In this document: piece by piece, positions 4,589-62,037 of the stretch | How the letters are laid out: every line of letters starts with the position of its first letter | Position numbering within the stretch: position 1 is the first letter of the stretch | Program-made: the position numbers and the translations under genes | From: Squalus acanthias | Taxonomy: Eukaryota | DNA length: 64,000 bases | Reading direction: 5' to 3' | NCBI GenBank assembly: GCA_030390025.1 | Contig: CM059426.1 | Span: forward strand, 88,412,001-88,476,000 | Notes under the pieces: generated by a model | Told to the model about the DNA's origin: nothing | The model's database searches: none | Seen by the model: only the letters and a program-made list of their open reading frames with translations

Positions 4589-6364
4589 AAAACCTAATAT
4601 TAACTGTGATAGAATCAGTGTAAAAGGTATAGAGGGCACAGAATTCTTAAAATGCATTCAGGAAAACTTTTTTAGCCAGTACGTAGCAAGCCCAACAAGA
4701 GAGAGGGCGGTTCTGGACTGAGTTTTAGGGAATGAAGCTGGGCAGGTGGAAGGGGTATCAGTGGGAGAGCATTTTGGTGGCAGTGATCATAATTCAGTTA
4801 GATTCAGCGTAGTTATTGAAAAGGACAAAGACAGACCAGGCATAAAAGTTCTTAATTGGGAAAAGGGCAATTTTACGAAGCTGAGATGTGATTTAGCAAA
4901 ATTGGACTGGAAACAACTACTTGAAGGTAAATCAGTGTCAGAGCAGTGGAAGGCAATCAAGGAGGAGATAGTGAGGGCACAGAGCAAAAAAGTTTCCACA
5001 AAGAAAAAGGGTGCGATCCCAAATCTAGAGCCCCATGGATGTCAAGGGGCATACAGGGTAGGATAAGGAAAAAAAGGGAAGCTTGTCAGATACCGAGAGC
5101 TCAATACTACAGAAAGTCTAGAGGAGTATAGAAAGTACAGGGGTGAAATTAAAAAGGAAATTAGGAAAGCAAAGAGAGGGCATGAAAAATATTGGCAAGT
5201 AAAATCAAGGAAAACCCAAAGATGTTTTATAAATACATCAAGAGCAAGAGGATAACTAAAGAAAGAGTAGGGACTATTAGAGACCAAAAGGTCACTTTTG
5301 TGTTGAGGCGGAAGAAGTGGGTATGGCTCTTAATGAATACTTTGCGTCTGTCTTCACAAGAGAGAGGGACGATGCCGACATTGTAGGAGGAGGAGTGTGA
5401 AATATTAGATGAGATAAACATAGTGAGAGAGGAAATATTAATGGGGTAAGCATCTTTAAATATAGATAAATCGCAAGGCCCGGATGAAATGTATCTCTGG
5501 CTGTTAAGAGAAGCAATGGAGGAAATAGCGGAGGCTCTGACCATCATTTTCCAATCCTCTCTGGCTGCCGGAGGACTGCAAACGTTGTACCGTTGTTTAA
5601 AAAGGGAGAAAGGGATAGACCGAGTAATTACAGGTCAGTCAGCCTAACCTCGGTGGTGGGCAAATTATTGGAAAAAATTCTGAGGGACAGTATTAATTGT
5701 CATTTAGAAAGGCGCAGATTAATCAAGGACAGTCACCATGGAATTGTTAAAGGAAGGTCAGGTCTGACTAACTTGAATTAATTTTTTGAGGAGGTAACAA
5801 GGAGGGTTGATGACGAAAGTGCATTTGATGTAGTCTACATGGATTTTAGCAAGGCTTTTGACAAGGTCCCACATGGCAGACTGGTCAGAAAAGTAAAAGC
5901 CCATGGGGTCCAAGGGAAAGTGGCAAGTTGGATCCAAAATTGGCTCAGTGGCAGGAAGCAAAGGGTAATGGTCGACGGGTGTTTTTGTGACTGGAAGCAT
6001 GTTTCCAGTGGGGTTCCGCAGGGCTCAGTACTAGGTCCCTTGCTTTTTCTGGTATGCATCAGTGACTTAGACTTCAATGTAGGGGGCATGATTAAGACGT
6101 TTGCAGATGATACAAAATTTGGCTGTGAGGTTGATAGTGAGGAAGAAATCTGTAGACTGCAGGAAGATATCAATGGACTGGTCTGGTGGGCAGAAAAGTG
6201 GCAAATGGAATTCAATCCGGAGGAGTGTGAGGTAATGCATTTGGGGAGGCCTAACAAGGCAAGGGAATACACAATAAACGGTAGGATACTGAGAAGTGCA
6301 TGTCCACACTTCCCTGAAGATAGAACAGGTAGATAAGGTGGTTAAGAAGGCATAAAGGATACTT

Positions 6365-6975
6365 TACATTGGAGGACCAAACACAGATTGGGTGGCCGCT
6401 TTGCGGAACACCTCCGTTTTGTCCGTAAGGGTGACCCCAAGCTTCCGGTCGCCTGTCACTTTAATTCTCCGCTCCACTCCCACTCTGACATCTCCGTCCT
6501 CGGCCTCTTACACTGTTCCAATGAAGCTCAACGTAAGCTCGAGGAACAGCACCTCATCTTTCGATTAGGCACTTTACAGCCTTCTGGACTCAATATCGAG
6601 TTCAACAATTTCAGACCATAACCTCTGCCCCTATTCTTTTTCACATGGCAGCTGTTGATGATTCTGCCATTGCCATTTTCATTTCATCTAGACTCATCCT
6701 TTGTTTCTTAACTTGTCCCATTACCATCTTCTTTTGCCTTGCACCATCGTCCCTTTTGTCTCTTAATCTCTCCTGCCTTCCTTCCCATCAGACCTTCCCT
6801 TTTGTTCTTTCCTCCCCTCCCCCCTTTCCCTGCCCCTACACTTCCTTAAAAACCTTTTACATCTCCAACATTTTTCCAGTTCTGACGAAGGGTCATCGAC
6901 CTGAAACGTTAACTCTGTTTCTCTCTCTACAGATGCTGCCTGACCTGCTGAGTATTTCCAACATTTTCTGTTTTT
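6365..6975 (+). mobile_element. 5'-truncated Penelope-like element (GIY-YIG C-terminus plus pLTR) nested in CR1
   Basis: ORF 6388-6621 RFAEHL...PVACHFN...RKLEEQHLIFRLGTLQPSGLN is a PLE GIY-YIG C-terminus; flanked by degenerate TSD ATAAAGGATACTT / ATAAGAGATACTT; hammerhead motif at 6878-6914. Confidence 0.85.
6878..6914 (+). ncRNA. Minimal type I hammerhead ribozyme motif in PLE pLTR
   Basis: AGTT-CTGACGA-A-GGGTC(ATC)GACCT-GAAA-CG-TT-AACT: stem I, core CUGANGA, stem II, GAAA, palindromic ACGT stem III, UH site. Confidence 0.75.
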
Positions 6976-24856: not shown

Positions 24857-26122
24857 CTGAGGGGCAGGGAAAAGACAAAACCAAGATGAAAGTAAAGAGT
24901 TATACTGGAATGGTTCAAGTATTCCAGCTTTCTCTTTTCACACAAATGACATAGATGGCATTTCCTCATTGAATTGAATCCTTTCACCATCCAATGCTGA
25001 ACAGAAATGCTGTTCCTTTCGACGTACCTTGTTTGAAGATCTTAAAGGGGCACTATGCACATCTTCAGTCCACGTGTGCACAAAATTACAGTGTTGTCCA
25101 ACAGATATTGCTAACTAGACACAAGTGTGGCTTGGGCAATATCGTTTTAGCCATATGCACTAATTTTTGTAGAAAATGCCTTGCATACACTCACACAATA
25201 CAGGTAAATATACTACCCATGTGTATATTTACTTAACAAATATCTACCACCATTCAGTAATCAAGGAAATAAAGCATTCACAAATGATCAAAAAACACTT
25301 AAACTCTGCTTTTCATCCACCATTTTAGCAACAAACACACAAAAAGGTTAAAGTGCACATGCATACACCGTGCCAATAGGAGTATGGAGATCAAATGCCC
25401 AACGACAGTGTTTATTACTCATCTTTATTTACTAACCAGAAATACAATTAACCACATGTGGATTCTCAATTAGTCATATGTGGCTAGTGGCTGATGTATT
25501 GGGCAACACTAGCGTACAATAGGTACACTGGGATGCTCATAGAGCCTGTCTGCTGGCTGGTACGGAGCTTACTATAACTGGTTAGATTACAGATAGATTG
25601 GGAACTATCTTTTTCACAGTCTCCATCAGATACTGTACTCACAATAGAACTCAACAAATACTGTGTAAAAAAGACAAAGATGGTTCCTGATCTGTGTGTA
25701 AAAAGATGATTGCCAGACAGTGGACATGCCCCTTCCTTAAAACATGTCTGCCTCACTTCCACTTGAATAGATTAGCCTTCCAGTCCATTTTCCAATGATG
25801 TTTAAAAAGGGCCATTATAGGCCAACTGTGCAAAATGTGCAGGAGGTTAAACAGCTGACACGATGTAGTCCCCTCTTCTTTACCTTGTCCTTCACTTTTA
25901 AAAGTTTAATTAATAATTTATTTTCGACTAGTAGCTTCTTGTTTTAGAAGCATTTTTTCTTTTTAATTTGAGAACATGGCACAGGCTGCCCAGGTTCAAA
26001 TAACAGTCTTAAATGGTCCATACAGAAGAGATCATGATGTGGAGATGCCGGTGTTGGACTGGGGTGGACAAAAGTGAGAAGTCGCACAACACCAGGTTAT
26101 AGTCCAACAGCTTTATTTGAAA

Positions 26123-26160
26123 TCACAAGCTTTCGGAGCGGCTGCTCCTTCGTCAGGTGA
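26123..26160 (-). ncRNA. Minimal type I hammerhead ribozyme motif
   Basis: Minus strand reads TCAC-CTGACGA-A-GGAGC(AGCC)GCTCC-GAAA-GC-TT-GTGA. Confidence 0.78.
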
Positions 26161-26347
26161 AGTGAAGAAATACAAATGGGCACAGCATATAAAGACAGAG
26201 AACAATGCCTGTGCAGAGAACAATGTCAGACAACTACAGTTAATCTTTAAGGCAGTTAGAAAGATTAACTGTAGTCGTCTGGCATTGTTCTCTGCACAGG
26301 CATTGTTCTCTGTCTATATATGCTGTGCCCATTTGTATTTCTTCACT

Positions 26348-26385
26348 TCACCTGACGAAGGAGCAGCCACTCCGAAAGCTTGTGA
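26348..26385 (+). ncRNA. Minimal type I hammerhead ribozyme motif (mirror copy, one stem II mismatch)
   Basis: TCAC-CTGACGA-A-GGAGC(AGCC)ACTCC-GAAA-GC-TT-GTGA. Confidence 0.72.
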
Positions 26386-27689
26386 TTTCAAATAAAGCTG
26401 TTGGACTATAACCTGGTGTTGTGCGACTTCTCACTTTTATACAGAAGAGAACATAAGAACTAGGAGCAGGAGTAGGCCATTCGGCCTTCTGAGCCTGCTC
26501 CACCATTCAATAAGATTATGGCTGATCTTCCACTTCAACTCCACTTTCCCGCTGCATTCACTGACAAACAAAATAATGCAACAGAAATTAAAGACAAGAT
26601 TTTAGATTTTACAGGGGAAGCAGCACCAAAAATTTATATTTTCACATAATTTAAACAAATATTTTTTTTAAATTTCAAATCCCATTCCATTAAGTAGAAT
26701 TGTACAAAAGCTCAAAGTAAATGGGAGTTTTATTGGCACTACTGTAATATGTTTTCATTTACTTTGTTTATGCGCCAACCAGATTTGACCAAAACAATTA
26801 AAAATATTGGAAATAGACGACAGGTTGATCAGTACCCGAAATAGAAAGATAGGTAACTTCTTCCTGTCGTTTTCCCTTCTTTATTCTCTTGGATATGTCC
26901 TGACTTGTTCCATAAGATGGGCTCTTTAGCCTGACCATGCCAGTTCTGATGAAAGGTCACACCCAGGACATGAACCTATGCTCAGTGACCTGCTGTGCAC
27001 TTTCATTATTTTATGTTCTTTTTTCAGATTTCCCACCTTAGCAGTTTTATTTTTGCCGCTACTTGGATACTACGATGGATCTGCTTTAATCTGAGTGGAT
27101 GTGCTTTTCAAGCAACTTTTAAAATTACATGTCACAGGATATTGAATCACAACAGTATTACAGAAAGAGGTAGTTTTTTTTAATAGAAGTTTTGCATTGC
27201 TAACCTGGAGTTATGTCAGAGCCAGGAACAAGGTAAAACGTCTACGAAACTAATGGCAACTCACTTCTATAGCGGAGATTTTATACTTAAAACAGGTTTA
27301 AAACACCCTTTTGGGTAGCTGCACAATGCCGCTAAGTGTTCGAATATGAAGCTGTGCCCGCAATTCTCATATTCTGCATTCCAAATCAGGGCATGAGGCT
27401 TAATACCAAGCAGATGGCAGACACTTTCCATGGGGAGGGAGCGAGGAAAGGAAACAAAAAAATTGGAGACTCACATTGATGTCAGTTTAAAAAAAAGTAC
27501 TGCCAAAGGCCAAGCACCAAGTCATGTGCTGTTTCAGCCAGAAAATAGTGCATTGCAGGTAAAAACGAAAGAACTTGCACTTATATAGCACCTTTGATGT
27601 CCTCAGGATGCTTTACAACTAATGAAGTCATTTTGAAATATAGGCAAACGCAACAGCCAATTTGTGCAGGGAGACAATAAATGCATAAT

Positions 27690-28926
27690 GGCCCGGAATT
27701 TGTGGTGAGTAATAACAGCAAACGAACAGCGTTTGCTCTTATTACCCCTTTGAAACTGACCGCAACTTCAGGATGAAGTGCATTTGCATCCTAACGCGGA
27801 AATCCTGAAGTTGTGGTCAGTCATTCACTGCTCTGACACTGGCTGCACTGTGGCCACCGCACCCCCGCTCCCCACAACCGGTAATCAGTGTAATCTGTCA
27901 AATCAGGGAAACTGACGAAAACCTTGGCTCTTCTGCAGTAATATTGCTGTTAAATACCCCATTAAAAGTTAGACACTTTTGGATTGGGTGTAACTGGGGT
28001 TTTAACAGCGGATTGACTGCTAAACAAACGTTATGATCTTGTAAAACTAATTTAAATTTTGTGGAGTGTCAAATTTATCCATTTTAATAAAAATTAAAAT
28101 TTTTAAGAAACTTCCTTTATTTCAGGTTTACCTTTCCCCATGTGAGGGCTCCAATTTTGTTTTGCCCACTATAACATTTTTAAAAAGTTAGAATCAAAGG
28201 ACCTTACTAACTTCCTGGTTCTCAGTCTGTGAGAATTCTGCTTTGTGATTGGCTGCTTAGACAGATTGTTCACGTCACAGCAGCTTGCGTTAGAGATTCA
28301 TAGGAACAGGAGTAGGCCATTCAGCCCCTCGAGCCTGTTCCGCCATTCAATGAGATCATGGCTGATCTGCGACCTAACTCCATACACCCACCTTTGGCCC
28401 GTATCCCTTAATACCTTTGGTTAACAAAAAGCTATCAATCTCTGATTTAAAATTAATAATGGATTTAGCATCAATTGCCGTTTGTGGAAGAGAGTTCCAA
28501 ACTTCTACCACCCTTTGTGTGTAGAAGTGTTTCCTAATTTCACTCCTGAAAGGTCTGGCTCTAATTTTAGACTATGCCCCCTAGTCCTAGAATCCCCAAC
28601 CAGCGGAAATAGTTTCTCTCTAACTACACTATCTGTTCCCCTTCATATCTTGAAAACTTCGATCAGATCACCTCTTAACTCTTCTAAATTCCAGGGAATA
28701 CAACCCTAATTTGTGGAATCTCGCCTCGTAACTTAACCCTTGAAGTCCGGGGATCATTTTGGTAGTCCGGGGATCATTCTGGCGCCCCACTAACTTACGC
28801 TGATTTCAATTGCACGTTGGAAAAGCTGAAATTCTCGCCACAGAGCTCACGAGATCTTTGTGGGAAGCTTAATTCGGGGCCAGCGAAGAACGCCTTTGCT
28901 TTGCCGCTGACCGCAAATTCCAGGCC
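27690..28926. mobile_element. Harbinger-like MITE containing a nested antisense CR1 3' fragment (~28299-28780)
   Basis: TIRs GGCCCGGAATTTG / CAAATTCCAGGCC; TSD AAT on both sides. Confidence 0.8.
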
Positions 28927-29080
28927 AATAGGAAAGAAGATTTTAAAAATAAATACTTATGTGGATGTATAAAAAATACCACCAAGTCATCAGATCACAA
29001 TTATATCTGGTGTTACAATGTAATAAGTACAACAGTGTTTATCAGAATACATACTATAATGTTATGATCTTACAAAACTC

Positions 29081-32000
29081 TTTTTTTTTATTAGTTCATG
29101 GGATGTGGGCGTCGCTGGCAAGGCCAGCATTTATTGCCCATCCCTAATTGCCCTTGAGAAGGTGGTGGTGAGCCGCCTTCTTGAACTGCTGCAGTCCGTT
29201 TGGTGAATGTACTCCTACAGTGCTGTTAGGGAGGGAGTTCCAGGATTTTGACCCAGTGACGATGAAGGAACGGCGATATACTTCCAAGTCAGAATTGTGT
29301 GTGACTTGGAGGGGAACTTGGAGATGGTGGTGTTCCTATGTGCCTGCTGCCCTTGTCCTTCTAGGTGGAAGAGGTTGCGGGTTTGGGAGATACTGCCGAA
29401 AAAGCCTTGGCGAGTTGCTGCAGTGCATCTTGTAGATGGTACACACTGCAGCCACGGTACACCGGTGGTGGAGGGAGTGAATGTTTAAGGTGGTGGATGG
29501 GGTGCCAATCAAGCGGGCTGCTTTGTCCTGGATGGTTTGGAGCTTCTCGAGTGTTGTTGGAGCTGTACTCATCCAGGCAAGTGGAGAGTATTCCATCACA
29601 CTTCTGACTTGTGCCTTGTAGATGGTGGAAAGGCTTTGGGGAGTCAGGAGGTGAGACACACGCCACAGAATACCCAGCCTCTGACCTGCTCTTGTTGCCA
29701 CAGTATTTATGTGGTTGGTCCAGTTAGGCTTCTGGTCAAAGGTGACCCCCAGGATGTTGATGGTGGGGGATTCGGCGATGGTAATGCCATTGAATGTCAA
29801 GGGGCGGTGGTTAGACTCTTGCTTGTTGGAGATAGTCATTGCCTGGCACTTGTGTTGCACGAAAGTTACCTGCCACTTATCAGCCCAAGCCTGAATGTCG
29901 TCCAGGTCTTGTTGCATGCGGTCATGGACTGCTTCATTATCTGAGGAGTTGCGAATGGCACTGAACACTGTGCAGTCATCAGCAAACATCCTAATTTCTG
30001 ACCTTATGTTGGAGGGAAGGTCATTGATGAAGCAGCTGAAGATGGTTGGGCCTAGGACACTGCCCTAAGGAACTCCTGCAGCGATGTCCTGGGGCTGTGA
30101 TGATTGACCTCCATCCACCACAACCATCATCCTTTGTGCTAGGTATGACTCCAGCCAGTGGAGCGTTTTCCCCCAATTCCCATTGACCTCAGTTTTACTA
30201 GGGCTCCTTGATGCCACATTCGGTCAAATGCTGCCTTGATGTCAAGGGCAGTCACTCTCACCTCACCTCTGGAATTCAGCTCCTTTGTCCATGTTTGGAC
30301 CAAGGCTGTAATGAGGTCTGGAGCCGAGTGGTCCTGGCGGAAGCCAAACTGGGCATCAGTGAGCAGGTTGTTGGTGAGTAAGTGCCGCTTGATAGCACTG
30401 TCGATGACACCTTCCATCACTTTGCTGATGATTGAGAGTAGACTGATGGGGCGGTAATTGGCCGGATTGGATTTGTCCTACTTTTTGTGGACAGGAAATA
30501 CCTGGGCAGTTCTCCACATTGTCAGATAGATGCCAGTGTTGTAGCTGTACTGGAACATAGAAACATAGAAACTAGGAGCAGGAGTAGGCCATTCGGCCCG
30601 TCGAGCCTGCTCCACCATTCAATACGATCATGGCTGATCATCCAAATCCAGTACCCTGTCCCTGCTTTCTCACACCGAATCCCCACATCGAGCCTGCACC
30701 TATCCCATCCTATCCCCATAACCCCACATATTTAATCCCCCCCTAACACTAAGGGTCAATTTATCATAGCCAAATCAACCTAACCCGCACATTTTTGGAC
30801 CGTGGGAGGAAACCGGAGCACCCGGAGGAAACCCACGCAGACACGGGGAGAATGTGCAAACTCCACACAGACAGTCACCCGAGGTCAGATTCGAACCCGG
30901 GTCCCTGGCGCTGTGAAGCACCAGTGCTAACCACTATGCCACCGTGTTCTGGAGCACAAGTCTTCAGCACGACAGCCAGGATGTTGTCGGGACCCATAGC
31001 CTTTGCTGTATCCAGTGCGCTCAACTGTTTCTTGATATCACGTGGAGTGAATTGAATTGGCTGTAGACTGGCTTCTGTGATGGTGGGGACCTCAGGAGGA
31101 GGCCGATATGGATCATCCATTCAGCACTTCTGGCTGAAGATGGTTGCAAACGCTTCAGCCTTGTCTTTAGCACTCACGTGCTTGGCTCCACCATCATTGA
31201 GGATGGGGATATTCATGGTGCCTCCTCCTCCCGTTAGTTGTTTAATGGTCCACCACCATTCACGACTGGATGTGGCAGGACTGCAGACTTTTATCTGATC
31301 CGTTGATTGTGGGATCGCTTAGCCCTGTCTATAGCATGCTGCTTCCACTTTTTAGCATGCATGTCGTCCTGTGTTGCAACTTCCCCAGGTTGGCACCTCA
31401 TTTTTAGGTACGTCTGGTGCTGCTCCTGGCATGCTCCTCTGCACTCCTTATTGAACCAGGGTTGGTAATGGCAGAGTGAGGGATATGCCAGTCTATGAGG
31501 TTACAGATTGTGGTGGAATATAATTCTGCTGCTGCTGCCCCACAGCGCCTCATGGATGCCCAGCTTTGAGCTGCTCGATCTGTTCTGAATCTATCCCATT
31601 TAGCTGGGACAGGACATACCCAGGGATGGTGATGGAGGAGTTTGGGACATTGCCTGAAAGGTATGATTCTGTGAGTATGACTATGTCAGGCTGTTGCTTG
31701 AGTAATCTGTGGGACAGCTCTCCCAATTTTGGCACAAGTCAGATGTTGGTGAGGAGGACTTTGCAAGGTTGATGTGCCGTTGTCGTGTCCGTAGCTGGTG
31801 CTGGGTGGTCCGTCCAGTTTTATTCTTATTATTGTTTCTTGTAGCGGTCTTATAGCGGTTTGTTCGGCCATTTAAGAGGGCAGTTAAGAGTCAACCACAT
31901 ATAGTCCAGACCGGGTAAGGACGGCAGATTTCCTTCCCTAAACGACATTAGTGAACCAGATGGGTTTTTACAACAATCCGATGGTTTCATGGTCACCATT

Positions 32001-32097
32001 ACTGATACTAGCTTTTTTATTCCTGACTGAATTTAAATTCCCCAGCTGCCGTTACTGAATTACTAGCCCAGTAACATTACCACTATGCTACCATACC
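29081..32097 (-). mobile_element. CR1/L2-group LINE (clade uncertain) with APE and RT remnants, poly(A) end and tRNA-like 5' head
   Basis: APE PKLGELSHRLLKQQPDIVILTESYL (31550-31735); RT QFGFR, LDIKAAFD, FADDC (29336-30420); A-rich 3' end at ~29081-29090; A-box TAGCATAGTGG at 32080-32090. Confidence 0.85.
30554..30946 (-). mobile_element. HE1-type V-SINE (full length) nested in the LINE
   Basis: tRNA head with A-box TGGCATAGTGG and B-box GGTTCGAATC; V-domain GTGGGTTTCCTCCGGGTGCTCCGGTTTCCTCCCAC; CR1-derived tail ending in (TTCTATGT)n. Confidence 0.88.
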
Positions 32098-32820
32098 CTT
32101 TCCCAGTGAATTCAACTAGTTTGGCTGGGTGGGGTTCAAGTAGGAGGAAAAATTTGTTTGGTTGGTTTTTCAGAAGTGTTTTTGTTGGAGGTTTTTAGTG
32201 CATTTCGTTTTGAAATCACAAGGTGACAACATTGAAACTGCTTGTGAATGCCTGAGGAAGGTTTTTCCCCTTGTTCCTCAGTATTACAACAGTGACGATG
32301 CTTCATTGGCTGTCAAGCGCTTTGGACATCCTGAGGTTGTGAAAGGTGCTATATAAATGCAAGTCCTCCTTTCTTTTAGGTGCAGTCCAGTTCCACCGTG
32401 ACCAGCTGCTCTCTGGCGTCCTGTCAACTAGCCATGTGTGAGCTTTGATTGGGAGTGTTGGGAGGCCATTCAAACCATGAGGAGTCTGATCCTGTCCACA
32501 CATGCAGTTCCAGCAAATGTCACTGGATAGCATTCAGGAAAGCCCGACTGATTTTCTCCTTTCTAACCCTGGGGCTTTGAAACCAAGTGTAGCACTCTTA
32601 CAGCTTCCATGATGAGTTAAGTCACCACAGACTTGAGATTGAACCTAGAACCTTTTTGGTCTGTATATTCATGACTCACTGGACAACCTCAGACAGTGGG
32701 GTAGTTAGTCCATGTGCAGATTTAAGTGCCCTTAAAATCTAGCAAATTGTAATAATATCAGTAGATGCCACTGAAATCTGCAAATGAAAGTCAGAAGCCA
32801 TAGACAAGATAGGAACATAC

Positions 32821-36244: not shown

Positions 36245-38620
36245 ATTACAGAGGATATACGGCACAGAAACAGGCCATTCGGCCCAACCAGTCCATGCCG
36301 GCGTTTATGCTCCACTTGAGCCTCCTCCAGTCTTTCCTCATCTAACTCTATCAGCATAACCCTCTATTCCCTTCTCCCTCATATGCTTGTCTAGCCTCCC
36401 CTTAAATGCATCTATACCTTTTGCTTCAACCACTCCCTGTGGTAGCGAGTTCCACATTCTCACCACTCTTTGGGTAAAGAAGTTTCTTCTGAATTCCCTA
36501 TTGGATTTCTTGGTGACTATCTTATATTGATGGCCTCTAGTTATGCTCTTCCCCCCAAGTGGAAACATTGGCCGCAATTTTGCCGACCAAGGTGGGTCCA
36601 GGGCGGCCGGGGTTGGTGTCGCGGTCCCAGCCCGCTGCCTACTGCAGCCCGCACTCTCCAAGCGATTTTCCGTTGATTGGGTTTGGTAAGTGAGGTTCCC
36701 GGACAATTAATAGGAAGCGGGTCTGATGATGTCGACACGTCATCAGTCTGTTTCCTTAAAGGGGCCATGTCCAAATTGATCTTGACAGTTCTGCTGTCAA
36801 GTGTTCTGCAGCATTGAGGTGCTGCAAACACTGACAAGCACTGCACAAGGTGCAGGCTGCACCCAGGCTCTCCCATGACTCCCTCCATATGCTTATGGAG
36901 GGAGTCACAGCACGCAGGGAGGTTCTCTTCCTTTCCAATGGGCGGAAGAGACCTCCCCAGGAGATCAACGCAGCCTGGTTGCACATTGTACAGGAGGGCA
37001 GAAGCAGGGATGTTGTCAGGAGGACCAGGCTGCTATGGCGCAAGCCTTTCAATGATCTGAGCAAATCACAAAATGTTACTGCCAAGCCACACTCAACCTC
37101 ATCCTGCTGTGCCACTCATCACATCCAAATCGCTCTGCCTTCCCTACCCTACTACTGCACATCCTTACTCACCAACTTACCTTGCACCTCCACCCATCCC
37201 TATCTATCTACACTATCACTTCCCCATCTCACTAGCCACCCCTCACACTCACCCTGAACCTACTGCAAGCATACGAACTAACACACAAGGGTAGCCACCT
37301 GGGTGGTTTAGCCAATGTTCATGTGAAGTTTCTGTTAATGTGTTGTCAAACATTGAAATCTATATTTTCAACACTTTACCATATGGGACAGATCTGTGCT
37401 CACCTTTGTAAGTGTCTTCGTGAGTTTCAGTGAATGTTGAGACATAACTTCCCCCCAATTGTGATGAGTGTGAAAGGAATAGCTTGGGCATTGCAGGGAT
37501 GCTTTATGGTGATGGTGTGGGGTGGTGTCAACCTGGCGCATCATGTGACAGCCAGGGTGTACAGTGTCAACTGAAGTAAATCTGGCCACGGTGATGCCAT
37601 CCCTGGCCTCCTGGGCAGCAGTGTTGTCGGGTGCTGATGCCCTGTTTCCTGCACAGCATCAGGTGATTGCGGAGAAGGCTGATGTTGTTGTTGGTGCTGC
37701 TGGCGTGCCTGGTGATGTTGGTGCTGGGGCTGATCGTGGAGGGATTCTGAGGACCATGGTGAGATTTTTTCAAGGGCACTGATGTTGCTGGAATAGATGG
37801 CAGCTGAAGTTGAGATGACAGAAGTGATCTGTCAATGGTGAGAGAGCTTGCTCCAAGGAGGTGACAGTGGATAGAGAGTTTACTACAAACACTTCCAAAC
37901 TGCAGACAGCTCAAAAGTGTCTTCCAAGTCCTGAAGGCTCAAGCTTCTGACATTGGAAAGTGAACAGCTGTGAAAAGCAGCTGTCAACTATTCACAGCAA
38001 TGGGGAAACGTAGTGAACCCGACCTACTTACCTGACGTGATCTCCGAACAACGTGAACTCCGTTAAAAAAGTGGGAAAATAGAAATAGGCTGGCAAAATA
38101 GTAGTTAACAAGCATTTAACAAGCTTTTAACTATCTTAAATGCCTCCCCTGCCGCTTGGTGTCGGGTCTATTCTGAAATCGTAGACCTGACACTTTGGAA
38201 ACTTATATGGAGGCAGGTTCGGAGCGGGTTCCCAACCCGCTGTCAATCATTTTGATTTTGACAGCGGACCCGCCTCCAAACCCCAACTCTGAGCACTGGC
38301 AAAATCGCGGCCATTCTCTCTGCATCTACTCTATCAAAACCTTTCATATTTTAAAGACCTCTATTAGGTCACCCCTCAGCCTTCTTTTTTCAAAAGAGAC
38401 CCAGTCTGTTCATCCTTTCCTGATATGTATATCCTCGCATTTCTGGTATCATCCTTATAAATCTTCTCTGCATCCTCTCCAGTGCCTCTATATCCTTTTT
38501 ATAATATGGCGACCAGAACTACACGCAGTACTCCAAGTGTGGTCTAGCCAAGGTTCGATACAGGTTTAGCATAACTTCCCTACTTTTCAATTCTATCCCT
38601 CTAGAAATAAACCCTAGTGC
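36245..38620 (-). mobile_element. CR1 3' fragment split by a Harbinger insertion
   Basis: RRNFFTQRVVRMWNSLP at 36338-36570; reading resumes after 38312 with CR1 C-terminal sequence. Confidence 0.8.
36570..38312. mobile_element. PIF/Harbinger internal-deletion derivative with Myb/SANT relic
   Basis: TIRs GGCCGCAATTTTGCC / GGCAAAATCGCGGCC; TSD ATT; Myb-like APRLSHDSLHMLMEGVTARREVLF...AAW...RKPFNDL at 36850-37065. Confidence 0.85.
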
Positions 38621-42484: not shown

Positions 42485-43259
42485 CTGGAATGACAAATAT
42501 AACAGCATCTCAGCAACAAAGAAGGGCTGCAGGGATTGAATTCAAATTACAATTGCTGTTAGTGATATTCCATTTTATTCTGTCAGTATGAATCATATTT
42601 TGACAGCGCCAGAAGGGGATACATCACACCAGTGAAAATGAAGGGCTGAATCACTCTTCCAATAACACCGGTTGGTAACTAATGGTGCACAAAATTAAAC
42701 TGAATCTTAAGCTCTATCTGGAGGCAGCCAGTTTTACTGCAATAAAAGGCAATTCAAACGACAAACGACAGCTGTCATTATTTTCTCTGTGATTCTAGTC
42801 AAGTTCAATTGGAAGTGGGAGATTAAAGCAAACTGTTTGCAGGTCAAGATTAGCAGGACTGCGATGGAGCTGCATTGCAAGTAAACACTCTACTCAAAAA
42901 ATGACCTATTATCCATTGTTGCCAACCCGCTCACTTTTTTAGTGATCGTCAGAGATTCTGGCCTTCATTTGTGCTACTCACAAAGTGCCCCAAATGTATG
43001 CATATTTGTGCTGCACATCCCTCCCACAATCCACTGCACACCAGCTCTTCTGTGCAAGTTCATCAATCCCTTGTGCCCCGTGCGAACACTGGGGATGTCC
43101 ACTTAGCTGAACCAACCAAAGCAAACAGATTTAAAGGTGCTAATCACACATGAGTTGCAGTTATGTTTCAAAGGATAAATGCATTTTTTTATGGGCTTCA
43201 CATAGAGAGATAAGAGAAATCCAGCTATATATACACAATGGACTCATTAAACAACAGAC

Positions 43260-43340
43260 AGTTCTGATGAAAGGTCATCAACTTGAAACGTTAACTCTGT
43301 TTCTCTCTCCACAGATGCTGTCTGACCTGCTGAGTATTTC
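43260..43340 (+). mobile_element. Solo PLE pLTR 3' end with degenerate hammerhead motif
   Basis: AGTT-CTGATGA-AAGGTCATCAACTT-GAAACGTT-AACT followed by the same tail as 6915-6975. Confidence 0.7.
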
Positions 43341-45673
43341 CAGCATTTTCTGTTTTTATTATACACAGATTGGCTTCAAATTCAGAATAGCAATCTTGGC
43401 CAGTCTGAACCATATTGGAATGCTGATAAAATACTTTGGGGAAAAAAATGCTAGCCCCAGGGACCCTTGTACACTATCTTTTGTGCTATAAGTATCTTTC
43501 CTCTGTTGTGGCTGCTGACTATAGCTAGGTCCAACAACAACAGTGGATTCTTTAAAAAAGAATTATAGCAGTCATGTAGTTGTTGACGGCTTCATTTGAC
43601 CCTATCCAAACTGGTGTCTGCATGCAATGCAGATGTGGGCGGTAATTTTATTCAATTTCTGCTGGTTTTGTGTGTGTATCTCAATTTATTGTTCATGTTA
43701 AACATGAACAATCAGCTGTTCAGCTCCCTTTGCACTGTCCGCCACACCGGGGAAGAGGGGTGCGGTGGGTAAAGTCTGATGTTTTCTAGCCTGTATGTAT
43801 TCTCCACTCCCGTGCCGTGTACATGCATTGCAAAGAGCCGATCCAAGGCCAGGCTGTCCCCTCTTATACTGCCCTCGGACATTGTCTGAAGTTGCTCCAA
43901 TCCCACAATGTCCTTGGGTGAAAGTGATCTAAGTCACACTGTTGTGACCAGGAGTTGTCGGCTCCCTGCTCTCTGTCAAACATTCACTCAGGGGCACAGT
44001 GAGCACAGGCTGCATGCTCCAGTCCTCAAGACTTCTTCAAAGGTGTCCTGGGGGCTCACCTGCTGTGCTGCTCATAGAAAAACTAAGGTAAAGTTGAGAA
44101 CTCCCTGTATGGGGATGGTAAGGACTAGTTTGTAGTACAGTACTATACAGGCCATGGTTCACAAAGACACTGGGCCTTCACGGGAAATTACTTATTATTC
44201 AGATCTCAAACACTTAACTGCTTTCACTTGCTAACTTAATTATGGACATTATTTCGTCTAATTCAGGTATTGCACCTCAGTTCTATTTTTCTCCTGTTCA
44301 CATCTTTTTGTTCTCTTGCTAGCAAACCAGAAAGTATTTCTCCCCCACTGTCCTCCTAATGAGTTCTCCTGGCTCAGGGCGCTGGCTGTTATGTGAAGGT
44401 GCAGCTCATGCCTCATCCCATGTGGGTGGAAGTTTGCTTGCGGGATTTCTCTCTCCTCACAGCGCGCACCCAATTCTCCATCCCACCGTGTTAGTGGACT
44501 GTGTGGGTCCTGCTGTTCAGGGCGCTGACTTAGGGGCAGTGGAGCAGCACGGAGGCAACACTGTTCAGTCCTTGTGGGTGAGAGCTGAGCTTTATCCTGC
44601 TGGTCAGAAGAAACAGGACAGGTCCCACAGCAACCCACTTCATTATTATAGATTCAGCCATACACTGTTGAACCTACGGCTTTCAACACAAATCATGGCT
44701 GTACGTTAAAAGTCCTATCATTAGGCCAGAGGAATTACAATAAAAATTGGATTTGTTATCATTCTCCGTGTAACTCCCAATACTATAGCAGGGATGACTT
44801 GGCATTTGAGCATGGCCCTGGTAGACAACACTTTGCACCCTACCATCAAGTAAGCATTAAAAAAAAGCCACATTATAAAATTATGAAACAATAATAAAGC
44901 AAGTGGAGGGTATATTGTTTGTGGGTTCATGTCATTGATTCTTTCCAAAGTGACACTTTGAAAATCAGCAAGGTTTACTGACTTGTTCATACACACTCAT
45001 CTGCAGCGCACACCTCCTTTTAAATTGGCCGATATCAACATTCAGTAAAATCTCAGCATTCAAAACACCATTTGAAGAAATATTCCTGTGTGAACATCCC
45101 GTACTTCCAGCATCAACACAAGTCATAAAAAGTGACAAAGACACTATTTTAAAGAATCTGCAAAAGCTTACTGAACAAGGACTTTGCAGAAGCTAGCAAA
45201 TATACGGAGGTTAAATGTACGTGCAAACACTCCATGTTGACTTAAGGGTGAGACATGCCCAGTGTGCTTACTCGAGTAATGGGGGCTGAAAATCCGTGGT
45301 CCTTCTGGAGCACTCCTGGCATAGCTCTAACAGGGGCCGCAAATTAGGTCTGGAGCTGGGTTCAGACCGTCACCAGAAGTTTCCTAGAATGCTTGCTAGG
45401 GGAGGGCGAAGCCTCCATCCATCTCAGACAAGGCTATCATCAGAGGACGGGGCAGAGACGCCCTTTGTCGGGAGCTTCCACTTTCAAAGCACTCAGAGGG
45501 ATCTGGCATAGGGATGGAAGCGATTCACCTGGTGGGAACAGGCATACCTACCTGCCAAACAGCAGAAGTGCCCATAAAATAGCAGCAATGGTGTGATCCC
45601 TTTGACATTCAAAAGACCCATCACCTACACCACACCACCTACAGGAGTAACAGGTACTGCAGGTACTTACAAT

Positions 45674-51757: not shown

Positions 51758-52448
51758 TATGCATGGCATGGAGAGAATGGGAGGGGTACAGAACAGGGAG
51801 GAGACAGATGTGAGGACAAACAAAAGTGATCGAGGCACGCAAGAAATATGGGACTTATTGAACTTTGGGTTCAGATGGTCATTTTCAGCTCTGATTTACA
51901 GAAAGGGAGTGTTAGCAAAAATGTCAGAAATAGAAAAGAAAGAGATAGGAGGGAGAGACAAGAAAAAGAGAGACACGAGACGGACACAATTTTAATTTTG
52001 CTCCTGAGCAACACCATGGGTAATCAACTAATATTTATAATTTGTTCTTTATTCTCATGTTGCGTTTCGCTGCTTAATGTCTGTGCATCTCCATGTTATT
52101 GTTTTCTGGCTCTACTTCTTATATTTTTTCCTATTACAGGAAACTTTCGTTTATCCGGCACCCAAATAACCGGAATTCTCGCTTAACCGGCAAAAATCAT
52201 CCTCCGAAAACTCCTCTCAAATAACCGGCAATGTTGCCGAGTCGCAGTCGAGTCTCCGCGAACGCCGAGTGCTCCGAAAACTCCTCTCAAATAACCGGCA
52301 ATGTTGCCGATCCCGAGTCCGAGTCCGAGTCCGCGAACGCCGATTTAGTCAGTAGGGGTACTTTTCAAAAGTGCCACTACTCGGCCTCCTGGCGCTGTCG
52401 CAAGTCCGAAACATTGCAGTAGCATGAGTAGATTCTCCCGCGCTGCCT

Positions 52449-52846
52449 GGAGTCTCTTCGGATCGGCCATTTTGCTGGGTGTCTCCCACGATGCTGGTAC
52501 TGTAGTCTCTTCTGATCCACCATTTTACTGTGTGTCTGCCACGCTGCTGGTACTGTAGTCTCTTCTGATCCACCATTTTGCTGTGTGTCTCCCACGCTGC
52601 TGGTACTGTAGTCTCTTCTGATACACCATTTTGCTGTGTGTCTCCCACGATGCTGGTACTGTAGTCTCTTCTGATCCACCATTTTACTGTGTGTCTGCCA
52701 CGCTGCTGGTACTGTAGTCTCTTCTGATCCACCATTTTGCTGTGTGTCTCCCACGATGCTGGTAGTCTCTTCTGATCCACCATTTTGCTGTGTGTCTGCC
52801 ACGCTGCTGGTAGTCTCTTCCTAGCCACCATTGTTCTGTGTGTCTT
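52449..52846. repeat. ~53-bp tandem array (about 7.7 units) upstream of the transposase
   Basis: Unit GTAGTCTCTTCTGATCCACCATTTTGCTGTGTGTCTCCCACGATGCTGGTACT; two units lack 5 bp. Confidence 0.92.
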
Positions 52847-52884
52847 TCCATCTTCATCGGCAATTATCTCCTCCATCTTGCATT

Positions 52885-54642
52885 ATGGAATTCCCAAAAG
52901 CTGGTCCAAGCAAAAGGAAGAGAGTGGTCTTAACTTTAAAACAGAAAATCGAGATATGCCAACGACTAGAAAGGGGAGAGAAGCGTATCAACATTATGAA
53001 TGAATTCAAAATCGGTTCGTCAACAATCTACGACATCAAATCGCAGAAGGATAAGCTGCTCAAGTTTTATTCAAGCTCGGAGACATGCAAGAGTGTAGAG
53101 AAACGGCGTACGCTTCGTAAGCCTAAGCTTGAAGAGCTGGATACCGTGCTTTATGAATGGTTTTCTCTTAAGCGTTCAGAGGGTGTTCCAATTTCCGGAC
53201 CCATGCTCATCGAGAAAGCGAAGGAATTCTACGATAGGATGGAGCTCACTGACAAGTGTGCTTTCTCCGATGGATGGCTAACGTGCTTCAAGTTACGGCA
53301 CGGGATACGACGACTCGATATTTCCGGGGAGAAGAAATCAGCTGATCACGAAGCCGCAGAAGAATACTGCAATTATTTCAATCGGATTGTGCAGCAACAT
53401 GATTTGTCGCCAGCACAGATCTACAATGCCGATGAAACTGGCTTGTTTTGGAGGTTTTTGCCAGAATCAACGCTTGCTGGGGCTAGTGAGGCTAATGCTT
53501 CAGGTTACAAGAAAAATAAAGATCGTGTAACCGTGCTAACATGTGCGAACGCTGCTGGATCACACCGGGTTAAACTTCTTGTTATCGGGAAGTATAAAAA
53601 TCCCCGTGCATTTAAAAATGTGAGGCACTTACCTGTTGAGTACAAAGCTCAAAAAAATGCTTGGATGGATAAGGAAATCTTCTCCGATTGGTTCCATCAT
53701 ATTTTTGTTCCATCTGTGAAGGAACATTTCCGCAGAATAGGGAAACCTGAAGATAGCAAATGCATTTTATTGCTTGATAATTGCAGAGCCCATCCGCATG
53801 AATCCCAGTTGGTTTCGGGAAATATTTTCACCATTTATTTGCCACCAAATGTAACTTCTCTCATCCAACCCATGGACCAGGGCGTTATCCAAAATCTGAA
53901 GTGTCATTACAAGAAAGACTTCCTACGTAAACTGCTAAGCCAAGATGAGAATATTCAAGATTTGCAGAAGGAATACAATATTAAAGATGCCATCTATAAT
54001 GTTGCATGTTCCTGGAAATTGGTGAAAGGTCACACTCTGAGGCAAGCCTGGTGCAAATTGTGGCCTTCTGTAATGTTTGCTGAAGGTTCTTCTTCAGAGG
54101 AGGAATTTCATGGGTTCAGTGTTCGTCCCAAGAAGAGTACAATAATGGAAATGGCTGGAATGGTGAAAAATGCAGGCCCAGCAAACCCTCTACGTCACCT
54201 CAGTGAAAGTGATATCGAGCAGTGGGTTGATGCAGATAGAGAAGTTGGTGTTGTGCATATGCTAAGTGATGATGAAATAATTCAGAATGTTTTGAATCCA
54301 AAGAAAGAAAAGGAAAGCGAGATGGAAAGTGAAGAGGATGAGATTTCTGAAGAAGAGAAGATTTCTTGGGCTAAAGCTGCAGAAGGATTTTCTACAATCC
54401 TCAAATTTGCTGAAAGGCAGAATTGCTACACTGCACAAGAAGTTATGCAACTCCATATTTTGCATTCCACCTTTCTACAGAAAAGGCAAGAGTCCACTAA
54501 GCAAACCGACATCCGCAACATGTTTAAGAAAGCTTCCAAAAGAGTCGCAGCAGCGGAAGTGCCTGAAGAATCGGTGGAACTGCGTGATCCTGATGACCCA
54601 GCTGGCACGGATATTTCTGATGAACCAGATGACTCGGAATAA
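52885..54642 (+). CDS. Tigger/pogo (jerky-like) DDD transposase, 585 aa
   Basis: ATG at 52885; CENP-B-type HTH ([15 protein letters not shown]), Tc5 HTH (LYEWF...[10 protein letters not shown]...FSDGWL..FK.RHGI), catalytic YNADETG / LLLDNCRAH / QPMDQG with 32 residues between the last two Asp; no stops. Confidence 0.95.
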
Positions 54643-57014: not shown

Positions 57015-60000
57015 ATTGTGATCACTTGGTTTAAAGCGGCCGGGCCAAGCCTACAGTGCAATTTATAAACAGTGAAAACCAAAGCAATTTAATTTCTCTT
57101 CCTAAATAGGTACCAATCCCCTTCTAAAGAGCAAAGTATACCTTGGAGTGTGTATCATGAGTAGTACTTGTTCTAAAATCCACATTGTTCTCCCTGGCAT
57201 GAAGAGGATATTATTAAAACAAACTGGAAAGTATTGGGCTCCTTCATGAAATGCTACATTCATCCATTTCAGCAGACAATTAGTGCAGTGCATGTGCTTA
57301 AGGAGTGTAATCCAATGAAATCCTCCAACATGAAAAGAAGCGACTGTGTGGGACCCTCTGAGGCATAGAAGATGGTAAATGGTATATAGAGAAGGTAAAT
57401 CAGAAACACTACTTCAATTTAAAGTGCCATAGCAACATAAGGAGGCAGAAGTTCGACTCTGGCTTCAGGACAAAGTTCAAACTGAACAAATAGTTCCTCT
57501 TCACACAAAAGGTGATCAACACATGAAATGGGCTTCAGGATAGGGTAGCGGAGGCCAAAAATCTTGGAAGTATTTAAGAAAGTTAAATGCTGTGATAGGG
57601 CAACCTAAATTATTTTTTAATGATTGAAGTAACATGGACTGAATGCCCTTTCCCATCCGTAACTAACTTGTGTCTAGTCCTTACTAGATGGTGTCTAGTC
57701 CTTACTAGATGGTGTCAGTGAGTCAAATTTGATTTAGTCAGTCACAGGTGTCCTTTTGAAAAAAAAGTTAGAAGCACTGCCCACTGGACAGTCAAGTGCA
57801 CTACTGTAATAACATTTGATTTACAATCAGTACTCAGTTCAGCACGTAGGTCAAGAGAGTTGAACGTGACATCCATCACTCCTGTGTATCAGTTTGATTC
57901 AGTGACAGCACATTAACCTCTGAGGATTCAAGCCCCACTACACGACAAGCACATGATCTAGGCTGATACATCAGTGCAGTACTGAAGGATTGCTGCATGG
58001 TTGGAGGTGCTGCCTATCAGATGAGACATTAAACCAAGGCCCCATCTGCATGTTCAGATAGATCTCATGGCACGATTCAGAAAAGAGGAAGGGAGTTCTC
58101 TTGGTGTCCTGGCTATGATAAATTGACCTTTAGTGTTAGGGGGGGATTAAATAAGAACATAAGAACAGAAGAAATAGGAGCAGGAGTAGGCCAATCGGCC
58201 CTTCGAGCCTGCTCCGCCATTCAATAAGATCATGGCTGATCTGATCCTCACCTCAAATCTAAGAACACAAGAAGTAGGAGCAGGACCCGGCCACTCAGCC
58301 CCTGGGCCCGCTACGCCACCCACAGGGCCTCGACCGATCCGAACTCAGCCTCATGTCCAATTTCCTGCCCGCTCCCCGTAACCCCTAATTCCCTTTACTT
58401 CTAGGAAACTGTCTATTTCTGTTTTAAATTTATTTAATGATGTAGCTTCCACAGCTTCCTGGGGCAGCAAATTCCACAGACCTACTACCCTCTGAGTGAA
58501 GAAGTTTCTCCTCATCTCAGTTTTGAAAGAGCAGCCCCTTATTCTAAGATTATGCCCCCTAGTTCTAGTTTCACCCATCCTTGGGAACATCCTTACCGCA
58601 TCCACCCGATCAAGCCCCTTCACAATCTTATATGTTTCAATAAGATCGCCTCTCATTCTTCTGAACTCCAATGAGTAGAGTCCCAATCTACTCAACCTCT
58701 CCTCATATGTCCACCCCCTCATCCCGGGGATTAACCGAGTGAACCTTCTTTGTACTGCCTCGAGAGCAAGTATGTCTTTTCTTAAGTATGGACACCAAAA
58801 CTGTATGCAGTATTCCAGATGCGGTCTCACCAATACCTTATATAACTGCAGCAATACCTCCCTGTTTTTATAATCTATCCACCTAGCAATAAAAGCCAAC
58901 ATTCCGTTGGCCTTCTTGATCACCTGCTGCACCTGCATACTAACTTTTTGATTTTCTTGCACTAGGACCCCCAGATCCCTTTGTACTGCAGTACTTTCCA
59001 GTTTCTTGCCATTAAGATAATAACTTGCTCTCTGATTTTTCCTGCCAAAGTGCATAACCTCACATTTTCCAATATTGTATTGCATCTGCCAAATTTCTGC
59101 CCACTCACCCAGCTTGTCTATATCCCCTTGTAGGTTTTTTATGTCCTCCTCACTTTCTACTTTCCCTCCCATCTTTGTATCATCTGCAAACTTTGATATG
59201 TTACACTCGGTCCCCTCCTCCAAATCGTTAATATAGATTGTAAAGAGTTGGGGACCCAGCACCGACCCCTGCGGAACACCACTGGCTACTGGTTGCCAGT
59301 CCGAGAATGAACCATTTATCCCAACTCTCTGCTTCCTGTGAGATAACCAATCCTCCACCCATGCCAGAATATTACCCCCAATCCAGTGATTTTTTATCTT
59401 GAGCAATAATCTTTTATGTGGCACCTTGTCGAATGCCTTCTGGAAATCTAAATACACTACGTCCATTGGTTCCCCTTTATCCACCCTGTACGTTATGTCC
59501 TCAAAGAACTCAAGCAAATTTGTCAGACATGATTTCCCCTTCATAAAGCCATGCTGACTTTGTCCTATCAAATTATGTTTATCTAAATGTTCCGTTACTG
59601 TCTCCTTAATAATAGACTCCAAAATTTTACCCACCACAGATGTTAGACTAACTGGTCTATAATTTCCAGCTTTCTGCCTACTACCCTTTTTAAATAAGGG
59701 TGTTACATTAGCAGTTTTCCAATCTGCCGGGACCTTTGCTGAGTCCAGGGAATTTTGGAAAATTACCAAAGCATCCACAATCTCTATTGCCACTTCCCTC
59801 AAGACCCTAGGATGTAAGCCATCAGGTCCAGGGGATTTATCCGCCTTGAGTCCCATTATTTTACTGAGTACCAATTCCTTAGTGATTTTAATCGTATTTA
59901 GCTCCTCCCCCCCAGAGCCCCCTGTTTGTCCAGTGTTGGGATATTCTTAGTGTCCTCTACCGTAAAGACTGAAACAAAATATTTGTTCAGCATTTTTGCC

Positions 60001-61129
60001 ATCTCCATGTTTCCCACCATTAATTTCCTGGTCTCATCCTCTAAGGGACCTACGTTTGCCTTAGCCACCCTTTTTCTTTTTATATAACTATAGAAACTCT
60101 TGCTATCTGTTTTTATATTTTTTGCTAATTTATTTTCATAATCTATCTTCCCTTTCTTAATCAATCCTTTAGTTACTTTTTGCTGTCTTTTGAAGACTTC
60201 CCAATCTTCTATCCTCCCACTAAGTTTGGCTACCTTATATGTCCTTGTTTTTAGTTGGATACTATCCTTAATTTCTTTACTTAGCCACGGATGGCTGTCA
60301 TTTCTTTTAGACCCTTTTTTCCTCAGTGGAATATATATTTTTTGAAAGTTGTAAAATAACTCCTTAAATGAACAGCACTGCTCATGTACCGTCTTACCCT
60401 TTAATCTATTTTCCCAGTCCACTTTAATCAATTCCGCTCTCATACCATCATAGTCTCCTTTATTCAAGCTCAGTACGCTTGTCTGAGAACCAATCCTCTC
60501 ACCCTCTAATTGGATATGGAATTCAACCATGTTATGGTCACTCATTCCAAGGGGATCCTTAACTAGGACATTATTAATTAATCCTGACTCATTACACAAG
60601 ACCAGGTCCAAGGTTGCTTGCCCCCTTGTAGGATCAGTTACATACTGCTCAAGAAATCCATCCCTAATACACTCAATAAACTCTTCCTCAAGGCTGCCCT
60701 GCCCAATTTGATTTGTCCAGTTAATATGATAGTTAAAATCCCCCATAATTATAGCTGTTCCCTTATTACATGCCCCAACTATTTCCTGATTAATACTTCT
60801 TCCAGCAGAGTTGCAACTATTAGGAGGCCTATATACTACTCCCACTAGTGTTTTTTTCCTTTTATTATTCCTTATCTCCACCCAAACTGTTTCATTATCC
60901 TGATCCTTTGACCCAATATCATTTCTCTGTAATACAGTGATTCCTTCCTTTATTAACATAGCTACCCCACCTCCTCTTCCTTCCTGTCTGTCCTTCCTGA
61001 TTGTTAAATACCCTGGCATATTTAATTCCCAGTCGTTGTCACCCTGCAGCCATGTTTCTGTAATGGCCACAAGATCATAATTGAGAGGTCGCACAACACC
61101 AGGTTATAGTCCAACAGTTTTATTTGAAA

Positions 61130-61171
61130 TCACAAGCTTTCGGAGCTATCGATTGCTCCTTCCTCAGGTGA
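61130..61171 (-). ncRNA. Minimal type I hammerhead ribozyme motif (inverted arm)
   Basis: Reverse complement of 61996-62037. Confidence 0.75.
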
Positions 61172-61995
61172 AGTAAATTAGATACAGAATCGCCAAAGCA
61201 TATATAGATAGAAAACAAAGCATGTGTACCTTACAATTGCAGACCACCAAATTAAATCATCCTGACTATCTGCCGAGGTGCGATAAAGTTAATTAAGTCA
61301 GCCAGGAAGGTACCACATCAAAGACATAGCAAGATACAACTGAGACAATGAGGTGTAGTCGCAGGGGTTCTAACGTGTCAAAAGCTGCCGTCTGTATGTA
61401 AAACGAAAAGCTTTAAAATTTTTACTTTTTTACTGGGAAAATTTTTACTTTTTTACTGGGAATCACATCTGTGAACAAGCTAACGACGACTCGAGTCCGG
61501 ATCACGTCATGTATCGTGTCATAAAGCGGGTAAGCGTTCTCCAAGGCAACCTTAGAAACACACGACAACACAAAATCATCGAGTAGAAACTGATAGCCAA
61601 GTTCCGCACTCATGAAGACGGTCTCAATCGGGATCTTGGGTTTATGTCACGATACATGACGTGATCCGGACTCGAGTCGTCGTTAGCTTGTTCACAGATG
61701 TGATTCCCAGTAAAAAAAGTAAAAATTTTCCCAGTAAAAAAGTAAAAATTTTAAAGCTTTTCGTTTTACATACAGACGGCAGCTTTTGACACGTTAGAAC
61801 CCCTGCGACTACACCTCATTGTCTCAGTTGTATCTTGCTATGTCTTTGATGTGGTACCTTCCTGGCTGACTTAATTAACTTTATCGCACCTCGGCAGATA
61901 GTCAGGATGATTTAATTTGGTGGTCTGCAATTGTAAGGTACACATGCTTTGTTTTCTATCTATATATGCTTTGGCGATTCTGTATCTAATTTACT

Positions 61996-62037
61996 TCACC
62001 TGAGGAAGGAGCAATCGATAGCTCCGAAAGCTTGTGA
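61996..62037 (+). ncRNA. Minimal type I hammerhead ribozyme motif
   Basis: TCAC-CTGAGGA-A-GGAGC(AATCGATA)GCTCC-GAAA-GC-TT-GTGA. Confidence 0.78.

Follow-up and report, generated by a model that had tools for sequence, protein, structure and literature searches.

We analysed a 64,000-nt stretch of the genome of the shark Squalus acanthias (contig CM059426.1, positions 88,412,001 to 88,476,000; hereafter the window), in which an intron of the lipid-pump gene ATP10D holds a 407-bp hairpin at 26032-26438. An earlier note, made from the letters of this stretch, had described this element, placed it in the intron and compared it with a larger element of the window; we call the two the 26-kb and the 61-kb element. 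The 26-kb element is a real, young, heavily truncated head-to-head insertion of a Penelope-like element (PLE), and by the features tested it is neither a retrozyme nor a miniature inverted-repeat transposable element (MITE).

The ATP10D intron and its hairpin

The host gene is on the minus strand. Thirteen ATP10D exons were placed in the window by tblastn with shark ATP10D proteins (P0010, P0012); one of these exons shares 92% identity with ATPase VD of Pristiophorus japonicus and 91% with that of Heptranchias perlo. This mapping bears out the intronic location, with the insertion 1.2 kb from the splice acceptor of its intron. Pfam, run on 14 frames of the window, missed both the ATP10D exons and the short endonuclease pieces treated below; protein searches identified both. 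The features are as follows, where pLTR is the pseudo-long terminal repeat of a PLE.

24857-32820, minus: ATP10D intron with the insertion, about 8 kb, from tblastn, its GT and AG read from the sequence
26020-26031: left target-site duplication, 12 bp, identical to 26439-26450; a contig of organism C matches the flank to exactly 26031
26032-26069, minus: one-sided Penelope tail, 38 nt, 71% A+C, 3' end of the tailed copy
26070-26248, minus: tailed arm, a 5'-truncated pLTR of a PLE in the same sense as ATP10D
26123-26160, minus: hammerhead motif in ATP10D sense, with a 4-bp stem I, a CUGACGA core from 26156 and an extra A
26249-26259, plus: loop, 11 nt, likely additional 5' sequence that belongs to the tailless arm, and neither filler nor a piece of the tailed arm
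26260-26438, plus: tailless inverted arm, a second 5'-truncated pLTR copy
26348-26385, plus: mirror hammerhead motif, antisense to ATP10D, with G>A at 26369
26439-26450: right target-site duplication, adjoining the end of an interspersed repeat (26450-26550)
61080-62128, plus: comparison element of a sister Penelope-like subfamily, with tailless arm 61080-61525 and tailed copy 61526-62128 (603 nt)

The inverted arms of the 26-kb element are 179 bp each and differ at four positions (26139, 26192, 26226 and 26232), two of them at CpG. The tail ends on the minus strand in CATCATGA. The target duplication is exact; a chance 12-mer match at fixed positions has a probability of ~7e-8. As composed, the tailed copy is 217 nt and the tailless copy 190 nt. 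The fold of the minus strand reaches -338.6 kcal/mol, with a z of -43.5, and 0 of 100 shuffles were equally stable. There is no open reading frame (ORF) within the element, only the loop between the arms. Both the hairpin architecture and the lack of a coding spacer therefore stand as first described.

Three of the four arm differences were assigned to the tailed arm, 26192 by family majority and 26226 and 26232 putatively; position 26192 is T in 99.7% of the depth of the run X1 contigs (described below). All four look like later neutral decay, and the arms were probably identical at insertion.

Two side observations concern the immediate surroundings. The ATP10D sense strand gains an AATAAA (26117) and two acceptor-like pyrimidine-AG sites (26220 and 26363, minus), all within the duplex. 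The interspersed repeat beside the right duplication, which looks like a SINE (short interspersed element) or CR1 3' end, has relatives at 28301, 30562, 47482, 58162 and 63776.

The Penelope-like source, its copies and their age

The 61-kb element has arms of ~446 bp with two differences, a tail of ~41 nt and a 12-13-bp target duplication. It is a clear insertion into a CR1-type endonuclease frame (59901-61103 and 62061-62423, minus), with YDL duplicated on either side of the interruption. By arm divergence it is younger than the 26-kb copy. Its tailed copy begins in a GIY-YIG C-terminus, and its spacer is the end of a Penelope-like ORF for reverse transcriptase (RT) and GIY-YIG endonuclease (EN). 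Over 44 aa, this spacer shares 86% identity with the C-terminus of P0002, a shark protein with RT and GIY-YIG. Pfam recognized RT in P0002 and GIY-YIG in a close relative (P0004). A CX4CxxC or similar linker separates RT from EN in 4/4 relatives of the 61-kb element (P0002, P0006, P0007, P0008). In PMC8557442, a CX2-5CxxC-type linker marks Neptune and Nematis rather than Poseidon, and to judge by this motif the nearest protein, P0002, has a linker typical of the former two.

The tailed arm of the 26-kb element aligns over its whole length to the 61-kb pLTR (83.6% over 220 nt). The alignment of the inner arm is nearly gap-free, with 56 of 77 columns identical and a score of 68; shuffled controls had a mean score of 28.4 and a maximum of 49, and 0 of 1000 reached 68. 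This overturns the earlier claim that only a terminal ~130 bp is common to the two elements. Since the whole arm aligns, they are sister subfamilies cut at different depths, not one module set on different bodies. Through this homology, the 26-kb sequence appears to derive from the pLTR of an element with RT plus a GIY-YIG domain at the C-terminus. A PDB search with P0002 gave no matches. Scans for patterns of the terminal module gave none either in the viral, prokaryote and metagenome collections (the last with two patterns), which is what one would expect of a repeat from a shark. We noted also that annotated isoforms of XRCC5 and FAM204A in Heptranchias perlo (P0001, P0009) terminate in the GIY-YIG C-terminus of this element type; these ends are either copies that became exons or artefacts of annotation.

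For PLEs, 5'-truncated copies set head to head, tailed on one side and flanked by a target duplication, are already published. PMC3846280 reports inverted pLTRs of which one is tailed, with duplications of 8-10 bp, head-to-head being the most frequent arrangement. PMC8557442 gives an inverted 5'-truncated copy and a one-sided 30-40-bp tail as typical, and calls the mechanism undefined. The 26-kb element shares with these endonuclease-bearing PLE insertions the head-to-head inverted pLTRs, 5' truncation, target duplication, pLTR hammerhead and tail of that length at one end. It differs from them in having no ORF, in forming a near-perfect 407-bp hairpin, in its 12-bp duplication (rotifer, 8-10 bp) and in its shark host. 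We consider it highly probable that it is a Penelope insertion of this known geometry. Of the two origins offered in the earlier note, a recurring insertion geometry therefore holds up, as one already published for PLEs; a MITE-like family of hairpin retrozymes does not fit an element with one hammerhead per strand within a 179-bp duplex.

Public contigs of 4 sequencing runs (X1, X6, X12 and X18) out of 24, none of them on record as RNA, were compared with 25660-26259, a span comprising the left flank, tailed arm and loop; run X18 (organism E) has no flank coverage. Summed contig depth is not a copy number, and contigs carry no strand or RNA-end information. In run X1 (organism A, which may be the source sample), summed depth was 10.7 at the flank and 3.5-6.0 million at 26040-26139. 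It then dropped steadily inward, to 136,000 at 26220-26239 and to 41,000 in the last bin, where loop and arm are not separable. No inner arm past 26220 was seen in the contigs of organisms C and E at 85% identity. The terminus is thus a very abundant repeat, and the inner arm is a smaller subfamily.

Loose ends with unrelated flanks fell at two places. At 26032-26034 there were at least 73 such contigs in X1; 26, 36 and 47 in X12; and 8 and 11 in X6, and outer-end pieces of this kind were also present in X18. Near 26077 there were at least 21 contigs in X12 and 237 in X18. These figures hold among the matches listed, 24 of 525. These are two 3'-end classes, separated by ~40 nt and present at many loci; they correspond to the tailed and the tailless end of the 26-kb element.

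One contig of organism C agrees with the flank, at 12 substitutions in 372 nt, as far as exactly 26031, after which at least 50 other letters follow. Organism C probably has an empty site, seen from the left side. For the empty-site check that the earlier note proposed, this covers the left junction. A run X1 contig holds the left junction, reaching 25 nt into the element with one flank difference from the window. A contig of organism B extends 8 nt into the element, which is no more than suggestive. Arm divergence is 4/179 (2.2%, confidence interval 0.6-5.7%) and the flank divergence of organisms A and C 12/372 (3.2%, confidence interval 1.7-5.6%), so that, by arm divergence, the insertion need not be older than the split of A and C.

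Formation of the two arms

A mechanism can be proposed by comparison with PAc, a Poseidon element of Anolis carolinensis (PMC11167929). With the protein of this lizard element, nicking and extension occur on both strands, and reverse transcription starts at two internal sites bounding the tail. Like the shark repeat, PAc has two 3'-end classes that bound an AC-rich tail, and a hammerhead just upstream. Nicking and extension of both strands would explain the two arms of the 26-kb element. In such a course, an endonuclease-bearing Penelope-like retrotransposon would have left, in one event, a head-to-head pair of terminal-repeat copies that are both heavily truncated at the 5' end. A staggered double nick of 12 bp would give the target duplication; one strand would prime at the outer site, yielding the 217-nt tailed copy, and the other at the inner site, yielding the 190-nt tailless copy. 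Both cDNAs would stop early and their truncated ends be joined, and the arms would afterwards decay neutrally. We lean towards this form of the known geometry, two-primer step included.

The loop bears on this proposal. In the six nucleotides that adjoin the arm, the loop agrees with the 61-kb pLTR at 5/6 in plus orientation and at 2/6 in minus, and its plus reading matches 6/8 letters of the continuation of an X1 contig. Each arm of the 26-kb element thus appears to hold sequence that the other lacks, a pattern that a single fold-back cannot give and that would modestly favour two separately primed cDNAs. At 61 kb, where the spacer is part of the tailed copy, both models are compatible with the layout.

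Several points weigh against the two-primer insertion as proposed. The loop assignment rests on those 5/6 and 6/8 letters, and the other five loop letters match the 61-kb repeat at 2/5. The main text of PMC11167929 does not tie two-strand extension to inverted copies, and PMC3846280 prefers self-priming on an antisense template. The lizard element is of Poseidon type, whereas P0002 has the Neptune/Nematis-type CX4CxxC linker; nor is an ORF start overlapping the hammerhead, as in PAc, evident in the shark. The probable empty site in organism C rests on its left junction and on the place where the match stops. Fold-back joints are barely seen, so variable centres are not demonstrated genome-wide. 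In organisms A and B the inner arm itself occurs in multiple copies all the way to the centre, which a family with a fixed centre also predicts. Finally, rotifer pLTRs alone mobilise a host gene in trans (PMC3846280), so pLTR-only units need not be dead. This last point touches on the fate of the 26-kb copy. The lizard protein requires an RNA that extends as far as +172 of the ORF, past the reported start sites at +111 to +118 (PMC11167929), so that a copy stopping at the tail may not recruit the protein; extrapolating from the lizard, the 26-kb copy was likely dead on arrival.

The same Penelope-like insertion could have gained its inverted arm from a single cDNA, by self-priming, fold-back or template switching, or from an antisense template. 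Self-priming has been proposed for Penelope head-to-head structures (PMC3846280), the probable identity of the arms at insertion agrees with it, and a single cDNA that folds back would suit the 61-kb layout, in which the tailed copy carries the spacer. Against it, a short match at 26 kb gives the loop to the tailless arm, and the tail is the other arm's, so that neither is a simple copy of the other. The tailless end moreover coincides with the second end class at many loci, as expected of a second start site. We regard a single-cDNA origin as somewhat unlikely.

We also weighed whether the 407-bp unit is one copy of a non-coding, non-autonomous palindromic family with a fixed centre, MITE-like in that the whole hairpin would be copied in trans by Penelope-like proteins. 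The multi-copy inner arm of A and B, set beside its absence past 26220 in C and E, and up to seven X1 contigs that run past 26259 (eight run over an end, one of them the left flank) speak for such a family. So do the trans mobilisation by rotifer pLTRs and the putative non-autonomous Chlamys elements of PMC8557442. On the other side, the two elements of the window (n = 2) differ in their centre, and the steady fall of X1 depth toward the centre favours a truncation by-product. One X1 contig leaves the arm at 26246 and continues in different letters that resemble the 61-kb pLTR. Copying such a unit would take a reverse transcriptase through a hairpin of -339 kcal/mol, and at the tailless boundary the strand offers nothing that would set a 5' end. 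No joint at the 26-kb centre is listed in any of the four runs, an insensitive test in which this locus's own centre is also unlisted. Eight joints are listed, one of them marked 'opposite strands' (X18, 26088/26139); further joints (12 of 18 listed) carry no strand information. In the literature we found no fixed-centre palindromic non-autonomous Penelope family, Repbase, most subscription papers and supplements lying outside this scope, and the accessible parts of PMC5753468 and PMC12910113 hold nothing on one. The existence of such a family appears improbable to us.

Non-LTR retrozymes (PMC7229834; 10.64898/2026.07.22.740005) are similar in being non-coding, of 150-450-nt scale, with a type I hammerhead and derived from or related to PLE pLTRs. 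They differ in forming head-to-tail tandems with ribozymes on the same strand, from which circles are released; the 26-kb element is head to head with one motif per strand, and its ribozyme is predicted to be unable to fold in the transcript. We therefore rejected this class for it. Separately, run X1 lists a joint from 26191 to 26070, with one letter between and a depth of 70 (flank, 10.7). If on one strand, it would be a head-to-tail repeat of a ~122-nt tailless hammerhead unit, a retrozyme-like tandem elsewhere in the genome.

Hammerhead motifs and the host intron

Hammerheads were sought with our own motif descriptor, against a background of 100 simulated random 64-kb windows. There are six matches in the window, all in Penelope-like ends, compared with 0.01 per random window. 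Each arm carries a minimal type I motif, with cores starting at 26156 (minus) and 26352 (plus). In the minus-strand motif, a perfect 5-bp stem II (26148-26135) is closed by the loop AGCC and followed by GAAA, a palindromic AGCU replaces helix III, and the cut site is predicted after 26127 (CUU). In the plus-strand motif, stem II has lost the pair that closes its loop through the G>A at 26369, a CpG decay. Thus an intact motif does lie on the ATP10D sense strand together with a ~180-bp hairpin, as the earlier note had it. Rfam gave no hammerhead match at E<=1 in the 26-kb element; its sole match, MIR821 (138 bits against a gathering score of 249), was rejected as a generic match to a long hairpin.

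The motifs resemble the minimal hammerheads of metazoan PLEs (PMC4209133) in their short helix I, the extra nucleotide before stem II, the G-C base of stem II, the palindromic remnant of helix III and the variable loop II; we see no difference of substance, and regard them as shark variants. The same source describes opposite-strand motif pairs 100-700 bp apart in Schistosoma. The reported difference in loop II between the two elements of the window, AGCC against AATCGATA, was recovered, and loop II is the most variable part among copies in the run contigs. Conserved stems under a changing loop had been read as selection on ribozyme structure. That reading is sound for the source retroelement lineages and does not extend to this intron, where the arm differences look neutral and one copy has already lost a stem II pair to CpG decay.

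Folding figures are equilibrium predictions. Taken alone, the motif forms stem II with a probability of 0.93-0.98 on the minus strand and 0.18-0.19 on the plus strand. In context the probability falls to ~1e-19 in all seven minus-strand prefixes and to ~1e-18 in three plus-strand prefixes, and forcing stems I and II costs ~69 kcal/mol. Since the 3' ends point outward, a read-through transcript makes the antisense arm first. The hammerhead in ATP10D pre-mRNA, transcribed after its complement, is accordingly predicted to be zipped into duplex. The mirror motifs lie on opposite strands and never in one RNA, so there is no cis dimer and no circle release. If the element is a truncated insertion of the known geometry, the hammerhead is a passenger of the terminal repeat.

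A role in the host, in which the ribozyme would cut ATP10D pre-mRNA or the 179-bp duplex would be edited or diced and so tune the gene, seems very unlikely. It could draw on the perfect sense-strand motif 1.2 kb from the acceptor, on the sense-strand AATAAA, and on the organism B contig that covers the flank and 8 nt of the element, which is RNA by guess only. The motif is predicted to be sequestered, the insertion is young and probably absent in organism C, and its changes look neutral. Minimal hammerheads are reported without monomer activity and with low dimer activity (PMC4209133), and one of nine retrozyme dimers was cleaved (10.64898/2026.07.22.740005). The hammerhead of the lizard element depended on the element's protein and could be dispensed with for insertion; at its cut site, no ends appeared in RNA-seq (PMC11167929). 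A 179-bp duplex would be a substrate of ADAR and Dicer. Passive editing or dicing in the intron is plausible, not as a selected function.

That the hairpin is a DNA-transposon (class II) MITE, a microRNA precursor or an assembly palindrome is hardly credible: the long inverted repeat and the sub-threshold MIR821 match would suit these, but the inverted repeats miss one end, with the 38-nt tail outside, the sequence is a retroelement pLTR with a 12-bp duplication, the arms differ at four sites with CpG decay, and a run X1 contig holds the left junction.

Other repeats were noted in the window. A second, distant Penelope-like family is found at 6346-6975, where a GIY-YIG C-terminus (36-40% to P0002/P0006) precedes a repeat that carries a minimal hammerhead at 6882; a 101-bp terminal fragment of the same family (43259-43359) has its motif at 43264 and is 93% alike. 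No inverted copy was seen at either place. An apparently intact pogo/Tigger-type transposase, a 605-codon frame with CENP-B_N, HTH_Tnp_Tc5 and DDE_1 (52825-54639, plus), lies in an ATP10D intron and is adjoined by a ~53-bp tandem repeat (52434-52845). Open frames at 4-459 and 36835-37254 (both plus) presumably encode Myb/SANT proteins of Harbinger transposons, judged by eye. A tandem array of a ~34-bp unit occupies 63406-63639.

The locus itself matters little, being a young and probably inert retroelement insertion; its value is that of a clean specimen. If a fixed-centre family did exist, it would add a new kind to the non-autonomous retroelements: a counterpart to tandem retrozymes, arranged head to head, that would seed introns with long double-stranded RNA. 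Short shark hairpins of the kind described here seem to be numerous, and in them both arms are preserved along with the tail and the target duplication. Loop ownership and the mixing of arm subfamilies in such hairpins could decide between two-primer and fold-back origins from assembly alone.

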